A stretch of DNA of 64,000 bases from Candidatus Latescibacterota bacterium. GTDB taxonomy: Bacteria; Krumholzibacteriota; Krumholzibacteriia; WVZY01. Position 1 is the first letter of the stretch. Every line of letters starts with the position of its first letter. The notes below the pieces were generated by a model. The model was given only the letters and a program-made list of their open reading frames with translations, ran no database searches and had not been told where the DNA came from. The position numbers and the translations under genes were made by a program. Positions 34,133-50,447 of this stretch are shown here, piece after piece. The DNA lies in the NCBI GenBank assembly GCA_963791045.1, contig CAWBQK010000011.1:352635-416634 (forward strand), in the 5' to 3' direction.

Positions 34133-34162
34133 TTGACAAGTTTTTGGGGATTGGTGTATGGC
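34133..34162 (+). promoter_or_regulatory. Sigma-70-type promoter of the histone gene
   Basis: TTGACA-18-TATGGC, followed downstream by RBS AAGGAGG. Confidence 0.45.
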
Positions 34163-34213
34163 AATAGAGAATTCAGTGAACTCTGTATTGTTTCATTTCA
34201 AGGAGGGACCCCT

Positions 34214-34402
34214 ATGGTGAAGAAGAAAGCTGCCGCCGAACTGATCATTTCGAAAGCCAGGACCAAAGCCGCTTCGAAAAAATGTAACGTGTCGGGCGAG
34301 TTCTACGGTGCGCTGGACAAAAAAGTCCGCGAAATGATCAAGCACGCCGAAGGCCGCGCAGTCGGTAACAAGAGGAAGACGCTCAAAGCCGTCGATCTCT
34401 AA
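34214..34402 (+). CDS. Bacterial histone-fold protein (Bd0055-like singlet)
   Basis: 62 aa, basic; LIISKARTK...NVSGEFYGALDKKVREMIKHAEGRAVGNKRKTLKAVDL with the RKT-x4-D histone signature. Confidence 0.85.
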   Translation: MVKKKAAAELIISKARTKAASKKCNVSGEFYGALDKKVREMIKHAEGRAVGNKRKTLKAVDL

Positions 34403-37835: not shown

Positions 37836-38638
37836 TTAGTCTTCGATGTGGAAATTGAATGTGCTGTCGATTTTTTGGATCTGATCGGCGAGGGATTCGA
37901 CTTCTTCGCGCAGTTTTGCGTCCCGGGTTTCCATGTACTTCGAGTACACATCGAGAAAGCGGTCCTGAAGGGATTTCAACTCCCTCGAGACTTCCGCGCG
38001 GTCGACCTCGCGTTCCAGATGGTAGACCTCGCCGGCGCTCAACCGGTCGAGAATATTGAAGTACTCACCACGCATGTGACTCAGGATTTCGACATAGCGC
38101 TCGAAGCCGGTCGAAAGCTTTTCGAGGATTTCAGTGATCCCCGTTGATTTCTTGAACATCTCCTGGCTGTAGGTGTACGCGAAACTGTAGTACGCCATGC
38201 CCTTCCCATCGACGCCTCTTCGGAGTTCTTGAAGATCTTCGCGGTGTCCGGTTTTTTTCTGTCGGCATTATTGAAGATCCCTATCGATATCAACAGGAAA
38301 TCAGCGTTGGTCTTGTAGATTGTGTATTTCAGCCGGGCGTCGGTCGAGTTTTCAATTTTAGCAAACAGATTCGAGTCGTACGGGGATATGTATTGTCGGG
38401 ACCGGCTGTGGTACTCCGGCTTCATGAACGAGCACAGCAGGTTCGCCAGGTAAATGTTCACGTCTTCGTCGTAGCATTCCTGGTTGGACGGGTGCCCGGA
38501 TTCGAGACGGCTATAAAGCAAGCAATTGAGCATGAATGAAAAGGTCGGTTCGACCTCTCTTTTGGTGCTTGGTCCCAGATTGGTGTGCAGATCAAAACCC
38601 AAAGGTGTTTTCTCCGTGTTGTAGGACCCGACCCCCAT
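37836..38638 (-). CDS. Conserved-looking all-helical hypothetical protein (one frameshift near 38200)
   Basis: ORF 38081-38737 joins 37836-38198: DEDVNIYLANLL...NADFLLISIGIF...AYYSFAYTY...LEKLSTGFERYVEIL. Confidence 0.7.
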
Positions 38639-38663
38639 GCCCTGTTCGTCCGGTGTCAAATAA

Positions 38664-38679
38664 TGCAATCTTTGTGCCA
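38664..38679 (-). promoter_or_regulatory. Sigma-54 promoter
   Basis: TGGCAC-AAAGA-TTGCA, a perfect -24/-12 consensus. Confidence 0.8.
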
Positions 38680-39077
38680 CACATCTACCGGGGCGATGAT
38701 AGAACCTTTTGCCGCACATTGAGTTCTGCGATCGCAATTCCGCCCCCCCTGGACGGTTCTCGACGGCCCAAACCGGAGGGCGTCGGGACCATCGCGCGAT
38801 GGCGGCCGCGCAGCATGTAACTCACATGGTGATAGTTTGTTATGGAGGATCCTCCTGTCTTTAGACAGATTCAAATGCAAAAATTGTCGAAAACACGCCC
38901 TTCAGTGTTTCCAAAACCCTTGACTTGCGGTATACTGAAACCTAATTATTACCGATATTGAATTATAACTTCATTAGAGATAGTTGGTTACGCACCCGAC
39001 GGTTCGACTCTCGCCGCATGGCCCATTGATGACTGCCCCGCTGATTTTTAGGGGGCGGCATAACAGGAGGGTGGAAA

Positions 39078-39884
39078 TTGAAAGTCGGATTTCTCCAGTT
39101 GAGACCGAAGTTCGGGAACGTCAAGGCTAACGTCCGTGCTGCTAAGTCGCTGCTGAAAAATGTCAGCGATGCCATCATCGTCCTTCCCGAGCTTTTCAAT
39201 ACCGGTTACCTCTTCCGCAGTAAAGACGAGTTGAAAGACCTCGCCGAGTCGACGACGACCGGCTACACCGTTGGCGAGATGAAGAAGATCGCCAAACAGA
39301 AGAATCTAAGTCTCGTTTTCGGAATTGCCGAGAAAAAGGGGCGCAGATTCTACAACACTTCAGTCCTTGTGACCTCTAAAGGGAAAATTTTCACCTATCA
39401 GAAAACACATCTCTTCGACCGGGAGAAACTGTTTTTCTCGCCGGGAGAGAAGAGCTATGAGGTGCATGATGTCGATGGCGCGAAAATCGGGATGATGGTG
39501 TGTTTTGACTGGTGTTTCCCGGAAGTGACGCGCGTGCTCGCACTCAAGGGTGCCCAGATCATTTGTCACCCGGCGAATCTCATACTCCCACACGGCCAGG
39601 CGGCCATGCGCACCCGATCGATCGAAAACCGCGTATTTACGATTACGGCGAACAGAATCGGAACCGAAAAACGCCCCAACGTGTCGATAACGTTTACCGG
39701 TCACAGCCAGATCATCGATCCCTCAGGTGTCGAACTTGCGAGTGTCGGCGATCGCAGCGAATCGCTGAAGATCGTAGAGATCGACCTTGCGGAAGCGGAC
39801 AACAAGTCGATCAACACCAACAACGATTTGTTCAAGGACCGGAAAGTGGCGCTCTACAAGCCGCTTCTTCGTAAGTCCGTTTAA
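39078..39884 (+). CDS. Carbon-nitrogen hydrolase (nitrilase superfamily)
   Basis: LPELFNTGY, YQKTHLF, VCFDW: E-K-C triad. Confidence 0.92.
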   Translation: MKVGFLQLRPKFGNVKANVRAAKSLLKNVSDAIIVLPELFNTGYLFRSKDELKDLAESTTTGYTVGEMKKIAKQKNLSLVFGIAEKKGRRFYNTSVLVTSKGKIFTYQKTHLFDREKLFFSPGEKSYEVHDVDGAKIGMMVCFDWCFPEVTRVLALKGAQIICHPANLILPHGQAAMRTRSIENRVFTITANRIGTEKRPNVSITFTGHSQIIDPSGVELASVGDRSESLKIVEIDLAEADNKSINTNNDLFKDRKVALYKPLLRKSV

Positions 39885-40044
39885 TAAAACGGGTCCGTGC
39901 ATTTTGAGAACGCGACATCTCCGCTCCGCACTCCGTGCAAACTGCAAAGTACGTCCCAACTCCCGTTGGTATGACGTGATTTCAAAACCCATGTGAAGTC
40001 AATAGGTTATGAAGTCTCCTCTGCGCCGCTCGCCGCTTTGCCGC

Positions 40045-40059
40045 TGGCATGGTACTTGC
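40045..40059 (+). promoter_or_regulatory. Sigma-54 promoter (IHF-like site at 39997-40009)
   Basis: TGGCAT-GGTAC-TTGC; AGTCAAtaggTTA upstream. Confidence 0.7.
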
Positions 40060-40132
40060 GAATTTGCCCGCCTGCAACAAGTCTAGCTACCCGTACGCAA
40101 TATAGATTTCTACTTAGACAAGGAGTTCGGTT

Positions 40133-42070
40133 GTGAAAAGGACAAAGCTCCCGGCGCTGACATCACCATGGAAGATCGGCTTTTTCGTTTCGCTTATGCT
40201 GGTGTCTGTCAGTGTTGGCGTCGCGTATTTCTTCATCAACAAATTCGGCGTGTCGTGGAATTGGCTCGACAAGAACGAGTGGATGGCTGTTATCAGGGGG
40301 GAAGGGTTTGTTTACGAGCTTTTGCCCGCTATCGCGCTTGTCGCCGTGACCGCGATGTTCTCCTATCTGGTGATCGCCAGAGCTGTACGCAAATACAAGC
40401 GCTATCTTGACTCCGGACTCGACTACAAAAATCTGCTGATGTCTCTCAAAGAGGCCAAGGATCTCGAGGACATTTCCAAAATTGAAAAGATCAGAAATAA
40501 TCCCGAACTCAAACGCCTCCTTCTCGGTGTGTCCGAACAGTTGTCGGAGCAGCGTGAAGCGCTTGTCCAGCGCGAAAACGAGATGGAGCAGATGACGGAT
40601 GACGCGGTTATCGCCAAGCACGAGGAACTTACGGAAGGATTCGCCGCGCAGTGTGAAAGTCTGGCCACGGCGATCCGCGAAGGCGCGGATGACTTGATGT
40701 CACCGGAGACGGGCGTGTCGAACTTGAGTTTGCGCACCCTGGGCGAAGCCATCCAGAACCGTCTCGAAACGGCGCCACCGGCCGATGCTGGGGCAGGGGC
40801 GCCCGGCGTCTCCGTCGAGACAAGCGCGGTTGTTCTCGGCCAACTCGATGAAATCACAACCGAACTCAGAGAAAGTTCAAACGGCGCCAAAGAAATTGAA
40901 AAACTACTCAAAGAAATGTCCGGAATTGGCGGGCCTGAGACGGACAAAGGACGTCTTGACGCGGCCAGGGGTGAGATTCGGGGCGCCCTCGATACATTGA
41001 AATCGCTCGACGAGTTGTCCACGTCACTCGATGTTATGAGCGAAGAGGCTAGGGGGATCGCGATCAGCACGGCCCTCCACGCGGGATCCGGCGAGGGAAC
41101 ACAGGATGATCTTATCCGGCTCGCCGAAGAGGTCAAAGAGATCGCCATGCGTTTTAAAGAGGGCACCGAAAGCTTCTCCCAGGTGGCATCCGGTATGAGG
41201 TCGTCGATGGGATCGCTCGAGGCGTTTATTGGCGGCGAAATGCGACCGGAGACGCCGGAGGCCGATCCGCGCCATTCGTTTTTGTCGCTGTCCAACAGGG
41301 TGTCTCTCTGGGTCGAGCGCGTGATGGTTCTAACCGAAAAAGTGGCCGGTCTTCAGGCCGCCGCCGAAGAGCCAGTTGCATCGGCGGTCGCCCCGGCCGC
41401 TTTTAAGTCTCCGGAGCCGGAAGACGTGGCTGCGGCGGATTCGGATGACGCTTTTGAAAAAACAGAAGCGGGGGCGAGATTCCCCGAGCAAGGGCAAGAA
41501 TTTGGTTTTGAGATGCTCGACAGGAGCAAGTCTCTCTTTAGCGATTCCACCGACGCGCCAGAGACGGCCGAACCGGAAGTTCCGCAAGATGCGGGGATCT
41601 TCGAGGAGATGTCTGCGGAGAGCGCTGATGAGGCGGATGCAACGGATCATGCGGAACTGGGCGATGAAGAGCCGGTAGAAGAGCGCACAACCGATGAAGC
41701 ATTGTCGGCCGACCAGGCGGATGTAACCGGGGAGAAAGAAGAGGCGTCCGAGATTCCAGCGGAGCCCGAAGTAAAAGATACGGCGCTTCCTGGTTTCGAG
41801 ACTTTTGCCAGGCAGACCACGCCGGAGTACGAAGCCCCATCACAGCCGGCGGAAGCCGAGCGGTTCAACGTGGACGAAGACCGGTTTGGAAGTCAAAAAG
41901 ACCGGCTCCAACCGTTCGAAGATACGTTCGAATCGGGATCAAATTTGAAGGCGCAGGAAAAAGAGAAAGCAGAACCGGCACCCGAAACATCACAACCCGA
42001 AGAGCTGGGCGACGTCGTCGACCTCTATGCATTGGGCGCGGTTGACTACGACGAAGCAGTTCACGGTTAA
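40133..42070 (+). CDS. Degenerate methyl-accepting chemotaxis-like protein with a long acidic tail
   Basis: Two TM helices, coiled coil, EEARGIAISTALHAGSGEG...LAEEVKEIAMR resembling the MCP hairpin tip. Confidence 0.65.
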   Translation: MKRTKLPALTSPWKIGFFVSLMLVSVSVGVAYFFINKFGVSWNWLDKNEWMAVIRGEGFVYELLPAIALVAVTAMFSYLVIARAVRKYKRYLDSGLDYKNLLMSLKEAKDLEDISKIEKIRNNPELKRLLLGVSEQLSEQREALVQRENEMEQMTDDAVIAKHEELTEGFAAQCESLATAIREGADDLMSPETGVSNLSLRTLGEAIQNRLETAPPADAGAGAPGVSVETSAVVLGQLDEITTELRESSNGAKEIEKLLKEMSGIGGPETDKGRLDAARGEIRGALDTLKSLDELSTSLDVMSEEARGIAISTALHAGSGEGTQDDLIRLAEEVKEIAMRFKEGTESFSQVASGMRSSMGSLEAFIGGEMRPETPEADPRHSFLSLSNRVSLWVERVMVLTEKVAGLQAAAEEPVASAVAPAAFKSPEPEDVAAADSDDAFEKTEAGARFPEQGQEFGFEMLDRSKSLFSDSTDAPETAEPEVPQDAGIFEEMSAESADEADATDHAELGDEEPVEERTTDEALSADQADVTGEKEEASEIPAEPEVKDTALPGFETFARQTTPEYEAPSQPAEAERFNVDEDRFGSQKDRLQPFEDTFESGSNLKAQEKEKAEPAPETSQPEELGDVVDLYALGAVDYDEAVHG

Positions 42071-42094
42071 AACACGATCCAGGGAGCCAATGGA

Positions 42095-44248
42095 ATGGCG
42101 AACAAACTCGACAGCACGAGCCTGTTTCTAGCACAGATGAACCAGAACGCCGAAATACTCGGCGAATTGCTGGGTGGTGGTGTGGGAGATCGAATCGACA
42201 CAGAGATGCTGGCGCGTGCGATTGTTGGCACGAACATGCTTTCCCAGAGTGCGGCGCTGATGGACCTTCCCGAGTGGTGCAATGCGCTCCAATCGTTCCG
42301 GGCGTTGCTGGATCTCTATAAGGATGGCGAACTACCGTGGGACGAGAGAATCGCCCAGATTACTTCTGAAATAATTGAGAAAGAAGATTTGCTGGCAGCG
42401 AGCGCCGGCGAGAGCAATCTCGCCGGTGTTTCAGACGAAGAGCTGGCCGCTCTGTCGAGAGAAGTAAGCGAACTATTGGAATATGCCGGCGAGGCCGGCA
42501 TTGCGGCGGATGAAGAACCGGACGCCGTCGAGGAAGCGGATGCGGACACGATCACGTCGCAAACTGTGGAGCCCATGGAACCCCCAAAGACCATAGAAAC
42601 CATGGAGTCCACGGAGACTGCGGAGCCCGTGGAGGAAACGCCCGCCCCGGTCGATCAAAAAGAATCGACGCCAAGAATTCTGGACGCGTGCATGTCAGAG
42701 CTTCGCCGCCACACCGAAACCCTTTTCGAGAGATGGGATTCCCCGGAGGGGATTGGAGAAGAGTCTTCGCCCTCGCTTGGCGAGACACGAAAAACCCTCG
42801 CGCTAATCGATTTCTACGCTGCGGCTCTCAAACGGATTATCGATGTGACGAACCGATGTGGCGAAGCAACGATGATCGATTCTCTATCGCCGATTCGCAT
42901 CGCCCTCGAGGACGGCGCCCGGGCGTACTGCGAGGGGACGGAGCGGGACTTCGAACTCGTGTGCACCGGCGAGGAATACTCGATCGATGCCCGTCTTCTT
43001 GAACGTGTGCAGGTCGTTCTCCAGCATTTGATTGGAGACACCCTTCTCCGGTGCAACGGTGAGGAGCGGCTGCGAATTGAGCTTTCTATCGAGAAGAAAA
43101 ACGGAGTTCTCTTCTGGTCGCTAGGTGACAACGGCGACAATTTTATGACGGATTCACGACTCGACCGCGACGAGTGTCTCGCGTTCTACCCGGGTCTTCG
43201 AAAAGTCCGCAAGGAGCTCGTGGATCTTCAGAGTCTTCTCTGGGTGGAACCCGATGGAAGCGGCAAGAACCGGTTTGCGTTTACGACACCGGTGTCGCTC
43301 GAGGATGGGCGTTTTATGGTATGGGGAAACGATGGCGACAGTATTGCGGTCTTTGCAAATCAGATCGCGGGAATCCACGAGCTTGACGAGATCGAAGTGA
43401 TCGATGATTCGCGCGGAGAGAACGTGACCATCGATGGCCGCAGGATTCGGGTTCTTCGCCTGGGACAGCTCCTGGCCGGTGGCCCCGAAGATGGTGACAG
43501 AATCGTCGTTATCGGATCCCTTGAGACGAGAATTGCTTTCTTCGTGGATGGCGAAGGTACGTCGGAGGACGGGATCTGGAAAAAAGAGGCCGTCCCGACC
43601 TGGCGGGGTATGGAAAACGGCGTTGTGCAGGTGCGCGACCGGCGCGTTCCGCTCATCGATGCGAATGAACTACTCAAGAGATACATGGCCATCGTTGACG
43701 CGGTGGCCGAAGAGGACGTTTCCGGGGGAGTCGATACTGAAGTATCTGATCCTTCCCATGCGCAGGCACACATGGAGTTAGATGCTCAAACTCCCCCGGA
43801 GCGATTGAATGAGGAATGTGATGACGAGGTGAAAGCGGCCACGGCCGGGACAATGGCCGGCGGGGATGTTGATGTGCTCGTCGTCGAGCAGAGCAACTCG
43901 CTCCGATCGACGCTCGAGACGATCCTTACCGAGAAAACGATCAATACTATAGCAGTGGATGGGCTCGACGACGCGCTTGCCTATCTGAAGGCGGGTTCTC
44001 CCAGGCTTATTATAAGCGACTTCAGGGTGCCGTCGATGTCGGCCAAGGCATTGGTGGATGAACTCGGAAGCGAGGGCAAAAATATTCCCGTTCTGGTAAC
44101 TACGGCGCACCAGGGGGAAAACGCGGACGTCCTGGTGGACCGATTGGGTGTCGCGGGTTACATCTGCAAACCGCTCGAACGCGACGACGTGTTGTCCAGG
44201 GTTGGAACGTTTCTCGAAAGTGCCGATGCGGGTGGATTGGGGAGTTAG
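42095..44248 (+). CDS. CheA-like hybrid (Hpt-like, HATPase-like, CheW, REC), degenerate kinase
   Basis: FELVCTGEEYSIDARLLE...LQHLIGD, LGDNG, FAFTTPVSL, RIAFFVD, REC IISDFRVP...GYICKP. Confidence 0.75.
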   Translation: MANKLDSTSLFLAQMNQNAEILGELLGGGVGDRIDTEMLARAIVGTNMLSQSAALMDLPEWCNALQSFRALLDLYKDGELPWDERIAQITSEIIEKEDLLAASAGESNLAGVSDEELAALSREVSELLEYAGEAGIAADEEPDAVEEADADTITSQTVEPMEPPKTIETMESTETAEPVEETPAPVDQKESTPRILDACMSELRRHTETLFERWDSPEGIGEESSPSLGETRKTLALIDFYAAALKRIIDVTNRCGEATMIDSLSPIRIALEDGARAYCEGTERDFELVCTGEEYSIDARLLERVQVVLQHLIGDTLLRCNGEERLRIELSIEKKNGVLFWSLGDNGDNFMTDSRLDRDECLAFYPGLRKVRKELVDLQSLLWVEPDGSGKNRFAFTTPVSLEDGRFMVWGNDGDSIAVFANQIAGIHELDEIEVIDDSRGENVTIDGRRIRVLRLGQLLAGGPEDGDRIVVIGSLETRIAFFVDGEGTSEDGIWKKEAVPTWRGMENGVVQVRDRRVPLIDANELLKRYMAIVDAVAEEDVSGGVDTEVSDPSHAQAHMELDAQTPPERLNEECDDEVKAATAGTMAGGDVDVLVVEQSNSLRSTLETILTEKTINTIAVDGLDDALAYLKAGSPRLIISDFRVPSMSAKALVDELGSEGKNIPVLVTTAHQGENADVLVDRLGVAGYICKPLERDDVLSRVGTFLESADAGGLGS

Positions 44249-44390
44249 AAAGGGTCGCAAATTGAGACGAGCGCGCCTCGCCGGGTGTGGCGCGAAAACG
44301 AGCAAGGCGCTCCTAATTTTTGTAGATTTGCAACTTGCGTAATTACAGTAGTTTACAGATTAGGTGTTCCGTATTGTTGACACGTCTGAT

Positions 44391-44406
44391 TGGTATGTTT
44401 CGTGCT
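44391..44406 (+). promoter_or_regulatory. Possible sigma-54 promoter
   Basis: TGGTAT-GTTTC-GTGCT (GG-N10-GC). Confidence 0.45.
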
Positions 44407-44465
44407 TAATCCAGATTCAGGTACATTTCTTTAAAAATTTTGTCGAACAAAAAGGACGGATCCTA

Positions 44466-44693
44466 ATGAGCAAGTGGAGAGATTCTGACTATTCAAACAT
44501 AGTTATCGGCGGCAACGATGATGTGGATGTGGTGATGACATCCGTCGAGGCGGCTGAGTATCTGAAGATGCACGTCAAGACCGTGTGTCGTCTCGCCAAA
44601 GAGAAAAAGATCCCGGCGAAGAAGGTGGGCAGTGAGTGGCGGTTTCTGAAGAGTGTTCTGGACAGATGGTTGACCCAAGAGGTGTTCGACTAG
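44466..44693 (+). CDS. Excisionase-family (HTH_17) DNA-binding protein
   Basis: MTSVEAAEYLKMHVKTVCRLAKEKKIPAKKVGSEWRF. Confidence 0.88.
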   Translation: MSKWRDSDYSNIVIGGNDDVDVVMTSVEAAEYLKMHVKTVCRLAKEKKIPAKKVGSEWRFLKSVLDRWLTQEVFD

Positions 44694-44776
44694 GAGATCA
44701 TGGCCTCGCGCCTTCTCCTGACCTCGGTTGATCGCATCCGTCCTTTTTGTTCAGGTCACTTTCGTCGGGAGTGCAG

Positions 44777-46567
44777 ATGGCCAAGACGGTCGTAGAAAAA
44801 GTAGACTCTCCGGATCTCGACGTAACCATATTCAAAATCAGCGGTACATTGGGATTTCACGAGAACCAGGTTCTCGTGAAATTCTTCAATGAGTGCTCCA
44901 CACGCGATATCCACAAGCTGGTCCTGGATTTCTCCGATCTCAGTTCCCTCGGCGGAGGTTGCGCGAAGATAATTCGCGAGTCGGCCGCCGCCGGCGCCGT
45001 TCAGCTGTGTATTTCGGGCGCGTCCCGAACCGTCCAGAATTTCCTGCAAAACAAAGGTACAACTTCGATTCTATTCGCCTCCGATGTCGAGAGCGGCCTC
45101 GCGGAGCTGCGTAACGCGCCGGCGCTCAACCAGGCGGCCGCGGCGCCCGAATCTCAAAGAGAAAACGGACCGGCGCCGGCGGTCCAATCTGAGCAGAAGC
45201 GGCCCGGTTCGGATGTGGCCGTTGCGGAGCCGCCCGTACAGTCGTCACCCGTTCCCGAACCAACACCGATTTGCGAGGAGACCGACCCGGATGATGTGAT
45301 GGCCCAGGTCGACGACATCCTTGTCGAAAAGCCGGAAGCGCCGAAACCCGCCGCCGATACGAGTAACCAGCAGGCGCCGTCCGCGCTTCCCCCTGGCGTT
45401 ACCATAGAGCCCGGACAAGCGACTATCAAAAACGCGGCGATACAATTTAGCGCCGAGGAAATAAAAGGTCTCAAGAAGAAACTCGTTCAGTTCAGAGCGT
45501 TGTTTTCGCTCAACAGCGAGTTCAGCAAGATCGGGGAAAAGACAAGACTTCTCGATGCGTTCCTCCTGACGACGATTGCCCAGGTTGGCGTGGAAAGCGC
45601 CGCGTTTCTCGAACTCATCGGTGACGAGTTCGTTGCGGCATGCTGGAAGGGGTTCGAAACAACTGACCCGACGGCGCTCAATATCAGTGTCAGTGAAGTC
45701 GATATGGCCCAGTGGATGCGGTCCACGGAGATATACGATCTCGCGTCGGCGCCCTTCGCCGATACTGCCCGAAAGCGAGTCGAACTTTGGGATCTTTGCT
45801 ACGCGTCTCCTTTTATTGTCCATGAAAAACTCCGCGGGATCGTTCTGCTTGGCCGGCCGATACGCCACGCGCTCGACGACGATTCCTGGGAATTCCTGAG
45901 CATGATGTTCAACCAGGTCGCAATCTCTTACGAGAACAGCTGCCGATTGGAGAAGCAGAGCGAACGGACACTCGGTCTCGTTCAATCGTTGATTTCAATG
46001 ATCGAGAGCAACACGCTTTCTCGCGGTACCACGGAAATGGTGATGGACCACGCTTACGCCATCGCCGTCAGAATGCACTATCCCGAGGAAAACCTCCGCG
46101 ACCTGCTCTACGGTGTTGTCTTGAGGGATATCGGAATGATCAACACGAGCGATCTTATCCTGCGATCTCCCCGCGAGCTCGAACAGGAAGAATGGGATGT
46201 CATTAAACGGCACCCCTCTGAGGGCGCGGAGATGCTCATCAATATGGGGTTCTCGGCGCACACGCGTCAGATCGTTCTCTATCATCATGAACGGTACAAC
46301 GGCGAGGGTTACCCGGAGGCGCTCTCGGGTGCCCGGATCCCGCTTGGCGCCAGAATATTGTCGGTTGTGGAAAGCTATGCGGCGATGCTCCAGGACAGGC
46401 CGACACGTGCCGCGCTTCCTCCCGAGGAAGCTCTTAATACGTTAAAAGACAACTGGGGTATCAGATATGATCCCGAAGTGATCGAGGTTTTTGCCGAAGT
46501 TGTTGAAGATGAAATTCGAACGGGGAAGAGGCAGAAATACAAAGGCCTCGACCTTATTAGAAGCTGA
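44777..46567 (+). CDS. STAS - linker - GAF - degenerate HD-GYP protein
   Basis: LVLDFSDL (STAS); LRGIVLLG (GAF); RDIG in place of HDIG; HHERYNGEGYP retained. Confidence 0.85.
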   Translation: MAKTVVEKVDSPDLDVTIFKISGTLGFHENQVLVKFFNECSTRDIHKLVLDFSDLSSLGGGCAKIIRESAAAGAVQLCISGASRTVQNFLQNKGTTSILFASDVESGLAELRNAPALNQAAAAPESQRENGPAPAVQSEQKRPGSDVAVAEPPVQSSPVPEPTPICEETDPDDVMAQVDDILVEKPEAPKPAADTSNQQAPSALPPGVTIEPGQATIKNAAIQFSAEEIKGLKKKLVQFRALFSLNSEFSKIGEKTRLLDAFLLTTIAQVGVESAAFLELIGDEFVAACWKGFETTDPTALNISVSEVDMAQWMRSTEIYDLASAPFADTARKRVELWDLCYASPFIVHEKLRGIVLLGRPIRHALDDDSWEFLSMMFNQVAISYENSCRLEKQSERTLGLVQSLISMIESNTLSRGTTEMVMDHAYAIAVRMHYPEENLRDLLYGVVLRDIGMINTSDLILRSPRELEQEEWDVIKRHPSEGAEMLINMGFSAHTRQIVLYHHERYNGEGYPEALSGARIPLGARILSVVESYAAMLQDRPTRAALPPEEALNTLKDNWGIRYDPEVIEVFAEVVEDEIRTGKRQKYKGLDLIRS

Positions 46568-46578
46568 GGAATTGACGG

Positions 46579-48153
46579 ATGACCGGAAACATTCTCATCG
46601 TTGACGATGACTTCAAGGTCCTTGAGATTCTCGAGAAGAGTCTGAGCAAAAAAGGGCACGAGGTTTCCACGGCGAATGACGGGGCCAGCGCACTCGAATC
46701 ATACGAGGTGACATCTCCCGACATCGTCGTTCTGGATCTCATGCTTCCCGACATGGATGGCAGGGAAGTTCTGAGAGCGATGCGCAACAGGCCAGGCGGT
46801 GAAAACGTCTCCGTTCTTATCCTTTCGGCAAACTCGGACAAAGATACGCGTATCGACACGATATCCGAAGGCGCCGACGACTTTCTAACGAAACCGTTTT
46901 GTTTAAGGGAACTCAATACAAAGATCGATAGGGTGCTTGGCCGTGCGGCGAAGACGCGCGCGTTCGAGAAAACTCAGGCCCTGCTGGAAGGCAAGATAGA
47001 CGAGCAGGATAAAAGCGCCGTGCTCGCAAACCGGGAACTCAAAAAACAGATTCTGTCGATGAAAACGCTTTTTGCCGTCAGTCAGGATCTCAACCGTCGC
47101 TTCGATATCGAGGAACTCATTAACGGGATGGCATTGTCGCTCATGGGCGAGTTGCAGGTGTCGAGTATGGCGTTCTTCGATCTCAAAGATGACTTGGATG
47201 AGTTCTTTGCCATTCAGGAAGTGAAGGGTTTTGATAAAAGGCGGATCGATGATCTGAAAATACGACGGGACAGCGATATCGCCCGGTGGGTCATGGTGAC
47301 CAACCGGCCCCGGAAGTTGGCGAGAAACGGCAGTGGGAAATGGTCCCGCCGTCTCCCCGACATTCGTCTCGCCGTCTTTGAGTATGTGACCCCGGTTGTC
47401 GTCAAACAGGAACTCCGTGGGCTGGTTTTTACAGGTCCCAAGCTCAATGGCAACGAGTACAAGCCCTTCGAGATCGATCTTCTCGCGTCGTTGTGCAACT
47501 CGGCGGGGACCGCGATGGAGCATGCGCGGCTTTTCCAGCAGCTCGAAAACACGTATCTCTCCACGGTCAAAGCATTGATGTCCATTGTCGAAGCAAAAGA
47601 CGCGTATACGAAGGGGCACACGGAACGTGTCGCCGACTATGCCGTCGCACTGGGCAAGAAAATGGAGCTGGGCCGGAAAGAACTCCGCGACCTCGCCTTT
47701 GCCGCGGTTCTCCACGACATCGGCAAGCTGGTGGTGTTCGAACGCGTTCTCAACAAGCCCGGCGCTCTCGATGACGAGGAGTGGGAGATATTGAAGAGTC
47801 ATCCCGAAATCGGCGCCTCGATCATCGAGAACATGGAATTCCTGGCGGACGCAGTTCCGTTCGTCCGGCACCATCACGAACGATATGATGGGAACGGGTA
47901 TCCCAACGGGTTGACGGGTGAAGAAATCCCGTTCGGCGCCCGTATCATCACCGTGGCGGATGCGTTTGACGCTATGACCACGGACCGTTCGTACCGCAAA
48001 GCCCTCTCTCGCGAGATTGCGCTCAACACCATGATCGCAAAGGCGGGGTCCCAGTTCGATCCCAAGGCGATGGAGGCGTTCATGGAACTTATCGAAATCG
48101 ACGACTTTCACCCGCGTCAAAACGGCGACTCTGCTTCGCACGATCTTCTGTAA
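46579..48153 (+). CDS. REC-GAF-HD-GYP cyclic-dinucleotide phosphodiesterase (RpfG-like)
   Basis: IVDDD, VLDLMLP, TKP; YTKGHTERV, LHDIGK, HHERYDGNGYP, VADAFDAM. Confidence 0.92.
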   Translation: MTGNILIVDDDFKVLEILEKSLSKKGHEVSTANDGASALESYEVTSPDIVVLDLMLPDMDGREVLRAMRNRPGGENVSVLILSANSDKDTRIDTISEGADDFLTKPFCLRELNTKIDRVLGRAAKTRAFEKTQALLEGKIDEQDKSAVLANRELKKQILSMKTLFAVSQDLNRRFDIEELINGMALSLMGELQVSSMAFFDLKDDLDEFFAIQEVKGFDKRRIDDLKIRRDSDIARWVMVTNRPRKLARNGSGKWSRRLPDIRLAVFEYVTPVVVKQELRGLVFTGPKLNGNEYKPFEIDLLASLCNSAGTAMEHARLFQQLENTYLSTVKALMSIVEAKDAYTKGHTERVADYAVALGKKMELGRKELRDLAFAAVLHDIGKLVVFERVLNKPGALDDEEWEILKSHPEIGASIIENMEFLADAVPFVRHHHERYDGNGYPNGLTGEEIPFGARIITVADAFDAMTTDRSYRKALSREIALNTMIAKAGSQFDPKAMEAFMELIEIDDFHPRQNGDSASHDLL

Positions 48154-48319
48154 ACCCCATTTCCATCACTTCGTTTTCGTAAGCGGTTCTCGCGCAAGGC
48201 ACTCGGGCAGATTTTGTATCGCCTGTCTTTGACCGCGTGTGAATTACGTTGACGTTTCGTTCTTTCCCGGCGCGTTGATATTTTTTGACGTCGTTGGCTG
48301 GCAGGTGTATCGCCACTAA

Positions 48320-48332
48320 AATCAATGAGTTA
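48320..48332 (+). promoter_or_regulatory. IHF binding site
   Basis: AATCAAtgagTTA matches WATCAANNNNTTR. Confidence 0.65.
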
Positions 48333-48366
48333 TATTTGGGGTCCATGTGTAACGTCCCTCGGTGTG

Positions 48367-48381
48367 TGGCATCCGTTTTGC
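48367..48381 (+). promoter_or_regulatory. Sigma-54 promoter
   Basis: TGGCAT-CCGTT-TTGC. Confidence 0.75.
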
Positions 48382-48391
48382 CTTAGAGAGT

Positions 48392-48620
48392 CTCAGACAA
48401 CCGCTACGTAGAGAGATGGGAGGCGGATGGATGTGTTGTGACGGGTGATGGGTGGCGAGAGCGGCATCCATGATGCTTCTCATCTCTGGTTTTTAAAGAG
48501 GGAGTGACGCGGGGTTCGGGACGGGAGGAACCGGATTCAGGACGGAGCGAAGTAGCCGGGCTGGCAGCTGTGCCAAAAGCATCTTCAGGGAGTCGGGCCG
48601 CTTCGGCTCCCTCTTTTTTT
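48392..48620 (+). ncRNA. Candidate GGA-rich (CsrB/Rsm-like) small RNA
   Basis: No ORF; about 11 GGA motifs; hairpins; ends in agggagtcg...cggctccct-cttttttt terminator. Confidence 0.6.
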
Positions 48621-48718
48621 GTGCCCGACCGTCTCTGTTTATAACAAGAGGTATTAGTTACAAAACAACATAATAATATGTATAATGAGTATAAAAAATA
48701 TCATTACAAGCGCATCAC

Positions 48719-48747
48719 TTGACACCTATGAATTCGTGGTATATAAT
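48719..48747 (+). promoter_or_regulatory. Consensus sigma-70 promoter of hipBA
   Basis: TTGACA-17-TATAAT in AT-rich DNA. Confidence 0.75.
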
Positions 48748-48807
48748 GTTATAGAAAAGTGCCAAAGAAGCTATAAATAGCTTATAACGTAAGTAAAAAG
48801 GTGCATT

Positions 48808-49140
48808 ATGGACTATATAGGAATGAGTGATCGGGCGATTCTCCGGGAGATCGGGCTGAGGATTCGGCGCCGCCGACTCGACAAAAACCTGACCCAACAG
48901 GAGTTGGCGGACAGGGCGGGTTTGAGCCGGAAGACCGTGAGTGATCTCGAACGAGAGGCGGGCGTCGGTCTGTTGACCCTCGTCCAGGTGCTTCGCGCGC
49001 TCGGAGAGCTGGACGAACTCGATGGGTTTCTGCCCGACCAGGGACCCAGCCCTCTCCAGCTCGCCAAACTGAAAGGGCGAGTTCGTCAACGCGCGTCCCG
49101 CCGGTCGACCGGCGACAAGAAGGAGGAATCCGATTGGTAG
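48808..49140 (+). CDS. hipB: XRE-HTH antitoxin (HipB-like)
   Basis: LTQQELADRAGLSRKTVSDLE; SPLQLAK...RQRA; overlaps hipA. Confidence 0.85.
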   Translation: MDYIGMSDRAILREIGLRIRRRRLDKNLTQQELADRAGLSRKTVSDLEREAGVGLLTLVQVLRALGELDELDGFLPDQGPSPLQLAKLKGRVRQRASRRSTGDKKEESDW

Positions 49141-50447
49141 CCGCGGCAGATGGAGTCGAGACCGCATTCGTGAAAATGTGGGGAATCCTTGTCGGGGCCG
49201 TAGCCTGGGACGATGAACGCGGGTTCGCCTGGTTCGAATTCGATCGGGATTTTCTCGACCGAGGGGTTGATCTCTCACCGCTTCAGATGCCTATTGCCGA
49301 AGCGCGTGAAGGGAACGCGACGTTTGAATTTCGTACGCTGCCGGTCAGCACATACCGGGGCCTCCCGGGAATGTTGGCCGACGCGCTGCCCGATCGATTC
49401 GGCGACCGGATCATCAACCGCTGGCTCGCCCGCCAGGGGCGGTCCCCCGAAGATTTTTCTTCTGTAGAACGGCTTTGTTATACGGGCAAACGCGCCCTCG
49501 GCGCCCTCGAATTCTTCCCCGCCATCCATGACGCGATTGATGAATCGGTTCCCGTGGAAATCGTTGAACTCGTTGATCTCGCGCAAACGGTCGTCGATGA
49601 ACGCGCTCAACTCGATACAACTTTCAAAGGCAATACCGCGGGCGCTCTGATTGATATTATCCGTGTGGGGACGTCGGCCGGTGGTGCGCGCCCAAAGGCC
49701 GTGATCGCACTCAAGGACGCGACCGGAGAAGTGCGAAGCGGTCAGGTCGCCGCTCCTCCCGGATTCGATCATTGGATTCTAAAATTTGACGGCGTCACGG
49801 ACAACACGTTGGGAGATTCCGCGGGGTACGGCCGGATAGAGTACGCCTACCACAAAATGGCAATCGACGCCGGCATCCATATGACGGAGTGCCGTCTACT
49901 CGAAGAGAACGGGCGCGCGCATTTTATGACCCGGCGCTTCGATCGCGTTGCGGGCAACGAGAGGCTCCATGTGCAGACGCTTTGCGCCATGGCCCATTTT
50001 GATTTCAACGATCCCGGCGCGTATTCTTACGAACAGGCGTTCCAGGTGATGCGACGGTTACAACTCCCCTACGAAGACGCCGAACAACAGTTCCGGCGGA
50101 TGGTGTTCAACGTCGCCGCACGGAACCAGGACGATCACACCAAGAACATTTCGTTCCTTATTGACCGAAGCGGCGAGTGGCGGCTTTCTCCCGCATATGA
50201 CGTGGTCTATGCTTACAACCCCGGTGGGGAGTGGACGAGTAGACACCAGATGTCGATAAACCGAAAACGTGACGGAATCAACAGGGCTGATCTTCTGCTC
50301 GTTGGCGCGGAGATGAGTATCAAGCATTGCGACACGGTCATCGATGAAATCGTCGAGGCAGTTTCCCGATGGCCTGAGTATGCGGAGGCCGCCGGTGTCG
50401 CCGCCTCGAAGATAGCTTCGATTGGCGAGCATCACAGGATGCTGTAA
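49134..50447 (+). CDS. hipA: HipA family Ser/Thr kinase toxin
   Basis: DALPDRFG, SAGGARPK, WILKFD, RRFDR, NQDDHTKN, LSPAYD. Confidence 0.95.
   Translation: MVAAADGVETAFVKMWGILVGAVAWDDERGFAWFEFDRDFLDRGVDLSPLQMPIAEAREGNATFEFRTLPVSTYRGLPGMLADALPDRFGDRIINRWLARQGRSPEDFSSVERLCYTGKRALGALEFFPAIHDAIDESVPVEIVELVDLAQTVVDERAQLDTTFKGNTAGALIDIIRVGTSAGGARPKAVIALKDATGEVRSGQVAAPPGFDHWILKFDGVTDNTLGDSAGYGRIEYAYHKMAIDAGIHMTECRLLEENGRAHFMTRRFDRVAGNERLHVQTLCAMAHFDFNDPGAYSYEQAFQVMRRLQLPYEDAEQQFRRMVFNVAARNQDDHTKNISFLIDRSGEWRLSPAYDVVYAYNPGGEWTSRHQMSINRKRDGINRADLLLVGAEMSIKHCDTVIDEIVEAVSRWPEYAEAAGVAASKIASIGEHHRML

Follow-up and report, generated by a model that had tools for sequence, protein, structure and literature searches.

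The DNA analysed here (the window) is a 64,000-nt stretch of contig CAWBQK010000011.1 from Candidatus Latescibacterota bacterium (Krumholzibacteriota; assembly GCA_963791045.1). It carries, between positions 37836 and 48621, a locus in which a degenerate chemoreceptor and a CheA-like protein are encoded together with a pair of HD-GYP proteins, a small helix-turn-helix (HTH) protein, a divergently oriented gene and a predicted structured RNA. The locus is real and conserved in Krumholzibacteriota. Judged from alignment and structure prediction, its CheA-like protein is a pseudokinase throughout the family, with the CheA fold intact in the model. We tentatively read the locus, with slightly less than even confidence, as a phosphorylation-free scaffold that would localise or gate the turnover of cyclic di-GMP (c-di-GMP) for type IV pili. 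No published account of it was found in literature searches, which mostly did not cover subscription journals and did not cover supplements. The features are as follows, with ORF standing for open reading frame, REC for the receiver domain and MCP for methyl-accepting chemotaxis protein.

37836–38602, minus strand: divergent helical protein of no known family (single ORF in relatives)
38665–38679, minus strand: sigma-54 −24/−12 motif of the divergent gene (match to TGGCA-N6-TTGC)
39078–39884, plus strand: nitrilase/carbon–nitrogen hydrolase (Pfam PF00795, E 5e-48)
39997–40059, plus strand: IHF-like box (39997–40009) and sigma-54 motif (40045–40059, TGGCA-N6-TTGC) before the MCP-like gene
40133–42070, plus strand: degenerate, MCP-like chemoreceptor (family profile against solved MCPs; selection)
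42095–44248, plus strand: pseudo-CheA with Hpt-like domain, dimerisation helices, lidless HATPase, CheW and REC (Pfam, AlphaFold/Foldseek, alignment)
44391–44405, plus strand: variant sigma-54 motif before the HTH gene (TGGTA-N6-GTGC)
44466–44693, plus strand: predicted DNA-binding protein of 75 amino acids (aa), HTH_17, Xis/MerR-like (Pfam PF12728, E 7e-14)
44777–46567, plus strand: STAS-GAF-'RD-GYP' predicted pseudo-phosphodiesterase (R450-D451; HD to RD in alignment)
46579–48153, plus strand: REC-GAF-HD-GYP, predicted active c-di-GMP phosphodiesterase (PmGH-equivalent residues)
48320–48381, plus strand: IHF-like box (48320–48332) and sigma-54 motif (48367–48381, TGGCA-N6-TTGC) before the RNA
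48393–48621, plus strand: predicted structured RNA ending in a U run (covariation; 5′ end placed from the promoter)

An original prediction, made from the letters of the window, had named the MCP-like, CheA-like and HTH genes, a dead STAS-GAF-HD-GYP gene, an intact REC-GAF-HD-GYP gene and a non-coding unit, and all are found where it had placed them. Its four sigma-54 motifs are also in position, that at 44391 being a variant. The divergent gene that it listed exists, as a single ORF of about 257 aa in relatives that is frameshifted in the window. Its gene list had passed over the intact nitrilase gene that lies between the divergent and the MCP-like genes.

To place the locus in its phylum, 201 genomes were searched for the CheA-like gene. 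Matches with E < 1e-43 occur in 12/12 genomes of family f1 and 23/23 of f2, and weaker ones in f4, f5, f7, f8 and f9 (f1 to f9 are arbitrary codes for families within the phylum). From these matches 40 loci were retrieved, long contigs being preferred. The order of the locus genes is preserved in seven families of Krumholzibacteriota, so that the synteny of genes and promoters proposed for checking is indeed conserved in relatives. The HTH gene is present in 39 of the 40 loci, the STAS-GAF-HD-GYP gene in 38 (two of them partial) and the REC-GAF-HD-GYP gene in 35. Where a gene is missing, the contig has in most cases come to its end; one genome (G126) is rearranged or misassembled.

The degenerate signalling proteins

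Chemosensory systems are defined by the autophosphorylation of CheA. In the CheA-like protein of the window, Pfam recognises CheW (E 2e-5) and REC (E 5e-14) domains, and the eight best Foldseek matches of its AlphaFold model (pLDDT 80.6) are solved CheA structures, comprising whole P3–P5 or P4–P5 constructs. A profile search of 1.84 billion proteins returned about 70 members of this family, as clusters at 50% identity, ahead of canonical CheA-REC hybrids, and the top 70 representatives were aligned with 14 canonical controls. The phosphorylated His of the Hpt domain, N47 in the window, is lost in 61 of the 62 representatives that have the column (R in 38, K in 14, T in 3, S in 3, N in 2, G in 1 and H in 1, with 8 gaps), whereas it is present in 14/14 controls. 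None of the 70 has the N-box Asn, which is Asp in 69 (D315 in the window), and none has the G2 box; both are found in all 14 controls. The G1 Asp is retained in 69/70, and the G1-to-strand distance is about 40 residues compared with about 75 in the controls, corresponding to deletion of some 35 residues of the ATP lid. The predicted absence of catalytic residues thus holds for the His, N-box, G2 box and lid but not for the REC domain, which in the window retains Asp642 together with the Thr and Lys. Among the 70 representatives this Asp column reads D in 25, E in 35 and G in 1 and is absent in 9, and the whole domain is missing from f5, f8 and f9.

Ratios of nonsynonymous to synonymous substitution (dN/dS) were estimated by the Nei–Gojobori method on at most nine chosen pairs per gene, with saturated pairs dropped, and are rough because dS is high; for the CheA-like gene they are 0.11–0.44 (8 pairs). 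In this family purifying selection holds the CheA fold in place without His, N-box or ATP lid, which makes it a natural experiment on the roles of CheA proteins apart from phosphotransfer. Of 36 genomes of the order, only three have a canonical CheA dimerisation domain. A search around homologues of the divergent gene brought up no intact ancestral CheA locus.

The MCP-like protein of the window has no match to Pfam MCPsignal, and matches below the Pfam cut-off (E 1e-4 to 1e-6) occur in three of the four relatives scanned. The family profile matches solved chemoreceptors with E 2.5e-11, and on this evidence the protein is clearly homologous to them. As read from its sequence, it has two hydrophobic membrane helices joined by a very short loop, with almost no periplasmic domain, then a coiled coil with a diverged tip motif and, last, an acidic tail. 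The tail closes with a nearly invariant DLxxLGAV peptide, which is usually doubled in f6. Its dN/dS is 0.18–0.43 (7 pairs). A complex prediction of the tail peptide (residues 606–645) with the RD-GYP protein and the Hpt-like domain scored 0.00, which is evidence neither way.

The absence of CheR, CheB and free CheW stated in the original prediction was confirmed at the locus and in the source genome (81% complete), where canonical MCP, MCPsignal, CheR and CheB give no match and the sole CheW domain is that of the CheA-like protein; free CheY lay outside the genome-wide search. Genomes of f5, f8 and f9 have a canonical MCP elsewhere; f5 and f8, which keep it, are mostly without flagellin. In the one locus where a che cluster around such an MCP was annotated (L171:8156-15540), it sits within a full cheR-mcp-cheW-cheD-cheB-cheA-cheC-cheY cluster that is followed by TPR and DUF4388 genes.

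The two HD-GYP genes are tandem paralogues and each other's best match in the genome. In the STAS-GAF protein HD has become RD in 37/37 sequences, with the replacement Arg invariant (RD also in 30/30 of a separate alignment); the H-to-R, K-to-M and D305-to-E changes each occur in 37/37. Relative to PmGH, this RD-GYP protein has lost the equivalents of D183, H189, H221, K225 and D308 and retains those of D222, H250, H276, H277 and GYP, as well as the Arg pair that contacts the nucleotide (33/37 and 37/37). It is thus degenerate in the manner of HD-GYP proteins such as MXAN2807, with the nucleotide-contact residues kept. Its STAS serine, S57, is nearly invariant. The REC-GAF-HD-GYP protein has all of the PmGH residues: the metal ligands, the D183, K225 and D308 equivalents, GYP and the guanine-binding Arg are invariant in 36/36, the second Arg is present in 33/36 and the receiver Asp in 34/36. 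The RD-GYP domain exceeds the active one in conservation, with mean identities of 64.7% and 59.7% across 36 loci; dN/dS is 0.06–0.16 for GAF-RD-GYP (8 pairs, excluding a broken copy in L032) and 0.04–0.29 for the active enzyme (8 pairs).

A rule links HD-GYP residues to a preference for cyclic GMP-AMP (cGAMP). For the REC-GAF-HD-GYP protein c-di-GMP is favoured over cGAMP as the probable substrate because of its RxxR motif. The comparison positions are R314 and K317 of PmGH, an enzyme that is described as binding c-di-GMP with one metal left (available part of PMC4159591). The source genome encodes three full GGDEF domains, with two partial matches, and gives nine HD_5 matches. A literature search for 'RD-GYP' found, among the matches listed, no invariant HD-to-RD change in a STAS-GAF fusion beside an active paralogue, and such a dead and live pair would be a clean system for learning how pseudo-enzymes regulate their paralogues. 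In the distant metagenome locus L194 (4838-6841), the REC-GAF-HD-GYP protein reads HE where HD would be expected, and a long stretch rich in Cys, Gly and Ser is inserted into its catalytic domain.

Could these genes be the neutral relic of a lost chemotaxis pathway? The missing catalytic residues and the stepwise truncation of the locus in f6 (below) are what a relic would look like. We find the idea scarcely credible, since dN/dS of 0.06–0.44 on the three degenerate genes contradicts neutrality, seven families keep the reading frames open, and the Arg that replaces His never varies. Lineage-specific decay, an outcome that would have spoken against the original prediction, is likewise contradicted by orthologues that are degenerate family-wide and under purifying selection.

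The retained receiver residues raise another alternative, in which an outside histidine kinase would phosphorylate the REC domains of both the CheA-like protein and the HD-GYP enzyme, leaving pseudo-CheA as a phosphate sink or a specificity adaptor. DivL-type pseudokinases play roles of this kind. Such a relay would fit the Asp of the CheA REC in the window genome and in 25 of 61 representatives and that of the enzyme REC in 34/36; it is unlikely in view of the change to Glu in 35 of the 61, the loss of the domain from f5, f8 and f9, and the lack of a kinase gene in the locus.

Among the closest known systems is Wsp (WspA, WspE, WspR), in which a membrane chemoreceptor, a CheA-CheW-REC hybrid and a REC-fused c-di-GMP enzyme are likewise encoded in one cluster. 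The locus differs in its dead kinase, in lacking CheR, CheB and free CheW, in having a phosphodiesterase with a dead paralogue as output, and in the added HTH protein, protein without known family and RNA. The class to which Wsp-type systems belong is named ACF in the part of PMC9239204 that was available. With the Tfp class (Pil-Chp of Pseudomonas, Frz of Myxococcus), the locus has in common a CheA with a C-terminal receiver and may share a link to type IV pili; some Hpt-like domains of ChpA are described as non-phosphorylated (PMC12632253, partial text). In contrast, ChpA and FrzE function as active kinases, alongside separate response regulators and methylation enzymes. In the locus the single Hpt has no His, the ATP lid is missing and no gene resembling PilG/PilH is present. 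Because defining features of these systems are missing, we class the locus as a derived variant and not as a member of either.

Promoters, regulators and RNA

Counting the window among the loci, a sigma-54 motif is in place before the MCP-like gene in 37/38 loci, before the divergent gene in 34/38, before the HTH gene in 25/40 and, with a slightly looser pattern, before the RNA in 27/36; the chance expectation is about 0.009 per 300 nt. The HTH promoter motif is present in 21/21 f1 and f2 loci, mostly as the variant, in canonical form in 4/4 f7 loci, and in 0/15 loci of f4, f5, f8 and f9. In these last four families a short spacer and the missing HTH promoter would put all five genes behind one promoter. 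With the IHF consensus as pattern, IHF-like boxes were found before the MCP-like gene in 11/37 loci (shuffle mean 1.2), the HTH gene in 15/25 and the RNA in 12/27 (shuffle mean 1.0), the shuffle maximum being 4; before the divergent gene they occur in 2/34, which is no enrichment.

The genome contains rpoN, 17 strong matches to enhancer-binding proteins and 56 strict sigma-54 motifs. Similar motifs precede pilB, a type IV pilin gene, a REC-GGDEF gene, a FlgF-like ORF and a frameshifted ORF without NCBIfam match that we presume to be MglA-like. The FlgF-like ORF (L266:1065-1514) lies at the start of contig C11, though no flagellin was found in the genome; it may reflect incomplete assembly, contamination or a flagellar remnant. 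The single sigma-54 programme of the original prediction is not supported as it was stated: no activator common to the promoters was identified, and four families lack the HTH promoter.

These genome-wide numbers bear on the possibility that the locus is a set of unrelated modules, each with its own role, that merely share a neighbourhood and a sigma factor. The 56 motifs and 17 activators, the equal synteny of housekeeping neighbours and the piecemeal loss of parts would all be expected if this were so. We judge it quite unlikely, because the divergent, MCP-like and REC-GAF-HD-GYP genes recur as a trio in distant metagenome loci, and because of the layout in f4, f5, f8 and f9 that would place five genes behind one promoter. 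The distant loci L194 and L195 have the divergent gene, a sigma-54 motif, a two-helix MCP-like protein and REC-GAF-HD-GYP, with no CheA; L191 resembles them by eye.

The HTH protein is the most conserved product of the locus (71–93% identity) and its gene is under the strongest selection (dN/dS 0–0.06, 9 pairs). It has no PDB sequence match. Like BldC and Xis-like HTH_17 proteins it is a small stand-alone MerR-like HTH, from which it differs by an N-terminal extension with a conserved IIIGG/IYIGG strand. A 16-bp perfect inverted repeat (44448–44463/44740–44755) flanks the gene and covers its ribosome-binding site; as a conserved HTH element it was rejected, the duplex of a locus's own sequences being the best in only 2/20 loci.

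The divergent gene, whose start codon was inferred, matches 157 of the 201 phylum genomes by profile and has dN/dS of 0.06–0.40 (9 pairs). An assembly error is the probable cause of its frameshift near 38200: of 29 matched genome bins, 7 have frame changes when compared with relatives; contigs from one sequencing run were short and none was shown to span the site. Searches of Pfam, PDB, Foldseek and VIA gave no match for the protein beyond a helical hairpin (Z ≤ 7.1), and so weak a match is no proof of a new fold, and its Atlas neighbours are unnamed clusters. On low-GC metagenome contigs (L254:8935-10126, L256, L252, L253, L259, L263), members of the divergent-gene family follow a recO-like gene, as judged by eye; they have no sigma-54 motif and are often followed by an ORF of 65–80 aa weakly like the C-terminal helices.

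In f3, 6/6 loci retain just the divergent and HTH genes, both of them preceded by a motif. This is one ground for considering a sigma-54-driven lifestyle or developmental switch built on these two proteins, with the pseudo-parts as a sequestration or partner-switching input and pili as one target. The strong selection on the HTH gene and the nearly invariant STAS S57 point the same way, and the small MerR-like HTH protein BldC controls entry into development in Streptomyces (PMC5859096, partial text). Such a switch is somewhat unlikely: no operator or target was identified, several metagenome loci that look different have the divergent protein but no HTH gene, and 12/14 f6 loci retain STAS after losing the HATPase to which it could bind.

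The predicted RNA has a hairpin at about 48410–48490 with a G/U-rich loop, found after the motif in f1, f2, f5, f8 and f9. A second domain of about 120–270 nt, confined to f1 and f2, is closed by a terminal stem (48498–48504/48607–48613) and presents an invariant GGGAGGA loop (48523–48529). In the first hairpin of this domain, pairing is found in 90% of cells, with double changes at 7/8 pairs in 24 sequences, the same from which the structure was derived; its covariation score was reached by 0/500 shuffles, and slid controls are 37–50% paired. A model built from these sequences finds one strong copy in 23/26 f1 and f2 genomes, in many cases because the sequence had gone into the model. In 115 other genomes it has no match better than E 1e-3. 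Rfam gives two chance matches in the window and none at gathering score in nine related loci.

The loop resembles a Shine–Dalgarno sequence, and no conserved ORF was seen by eye after it. CsrB/RsmY-type RNAs also present GGA in a hairpin loop, but they carry many repeats, in contrast to the one invariant loop here; with CsrA found in 0/36 genomes of the order, the reading as a CsrB-like small RNA was rejected. CrcZ, Qrr and Pxr are sigma-54-dependent small RNAs, which the sigma-54 motif upstream recalls. The locus also supplies a structured RNA that Rfam does not contain, as well as a conserved protein for which no fold match was obtained. Downstream of the RNA the window has an AT-rich spacer and an HTH_3 and HipA toxin–antitoxin pair (48620–50447). 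In the relatives L031 and L033 this place is taken by an M16-type peptidase gene, and the spacer and pair are probably an insertion at the 3′ end of the RNA.

Reduced loci and the role of the proposed scaffold

The presence of the divergent gene follows that of PilM in 177 of the 201 genomes (both in 148, neither in 29), with 24 discordant (divergent gene only in 9, PilM only in 15). In f3 the two are both present in seven genomes and both absent from five, with no discordant genome. Four f6 genomes have full-length PilM, and the two f6 loci that carry the complete gene set come from two of these. PilB of the source genome reaches the cut-off for the MshE-type c-di-GMP motif (38.2 against 38). 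High c-di-GMP is reported to lower pilA expression and pilus assembly in Myxococcus (PMC4686200, partial text). Flagellin matches are found in 0/12 genomes of f1, 2/23 of f2, 8/42 of f5, 1/8 of f8, 2/7 of f4, 5/9 of f7, 1/1 of f9, 81/86 of f6 and 12/12 of f3, which places the full locus mostly in lineages without flagellin.

Building on the ancestry, catalytic loss, selection, synteny, promoter motifs, RNA covariation and co-occurrence with pili described above, we infer the contacts, localisation, c-di-GMP binding and output of the proposed scaffold as follows. A hybrid core like that of Wsp or Frz, consisting of a receptor and a CheA-CheW-REC protein, would have lost kinase chemistry early in Krumholzibacteriota and been kept as a protein scaffold. 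The membrane-anchored pseudo-receptor would mark a site in the cell, likely a pole, and would hold pseudo-CheA and the RD-GYP protein by means of its tip and tail peptide. The latter may bind c-di-GMP without cleaving it and gate its active paralogue, likely through a GAF-mediated heterodimer, while the REC domain of the active enzyme would be phosphorylated by a kinase encoded elsewhere. In this way c-di-GMP would be controlled locally at the machinery of the type IV pilus, whose PilB has the c-di-GMP-binding motif. Regulation would fall to a layer made up of the HTH protein, the divergent protein and the RNA, co-induced by sigma-54.

Several observations weigh against this scaffold, and the strongest comes from 14 f6 loci, which were selected via the divergent gene and in which CheA remnants were assigned by eye and by weak HMM matches. 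Two are complete, six have a remnant of Hpt-like and REC domains, three have the Hpt-like domain only and three have no CheA remnant. The MCP-like gene (split in one) and the RD-GYP gene are present in 14/14, and the active enzyme in 2/14; the same 12/14 lack both the CheW domain and the active enzyme. In these 12 loci the RD and HHE motifs stay and the Arg pair looks lost, judged on a partial window of each sequence. The job of the RD-GYP protein would then need neither the paralogue nor, perhaps, c-di-GMP. By the pattern used, at most 2 of the 14 have a sigma-54 motif before a locus gene. The same series counts against two elements of the original prediction, an MCP-tip/CheW array as essential hub and HD-GYP control as the sole purpose; its reading of a repurposed non-catalytic hub is partly supported. 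As a ready deletion series, f6 would help to map which contacts matter.

The link to pili also has points against it. The correlation concerns the divergent gene only, related genomes are not independent, and joint losses may reflect general genome reduction. In f3 PilM occurs with no more of the locus than the divergent and HTH genes. Two f6 genomes with full-length PilM, G110 and G156, have no divergent-gene match. Most f6 PilM matches cover only half of the model, and the match in the source genome is weak (E 2e-22). Finally, the IMPDH, esterase and nitrilase genes are about as syntenic as the signalling genes, and synteny alone therefore does not prove one pathway.

A bolder form of the scaffold reading is possible but doubtful: an entire chemosensory pathway would have turned phosphorylation-free, with a pseudo-receptor that docks partners by its tail, a pseudo-CheA, and a pseudo-phosphodiesterase that senses c-di-GMP and gates its active twin. 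Throughout the phylum it would act as the master switch for a life on surfaces that depends on pili. If true, the pathway would be wired to a protein without a known fold, to a regulator of the Xis-like kind and to an RNA family not described before, which has a Shine–Dalgarno-like loop. The phylum is largely uncultured, yet all the parts can be expressed in laboratory hosts.

Neighbouring genes

The nitrilase gene is intact in the window, absent from the four f7 loci and has dN/dS of 0.05–0.22 (8 pairs); it is a syntenic bystander. At the other end, a gene for the diadenylate cyclase CdaA converges on the locus in f9 (L060:15116-15895) and apparently also in f5, f7 and f8, the CdaA of L062 and L066 being assigned by sequence likeness. 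CdaA is probably a bystander, yet it places c-di-AMP synthesis beside the HD-GYP genes. Further upstream in the window (34133–34402), between the dcd and MgtC/IMPDH genes, lies a conserved gene for an 89-aa basic protein that is 66–79% identical in relatives and has, by eye, a histone-like appearance.

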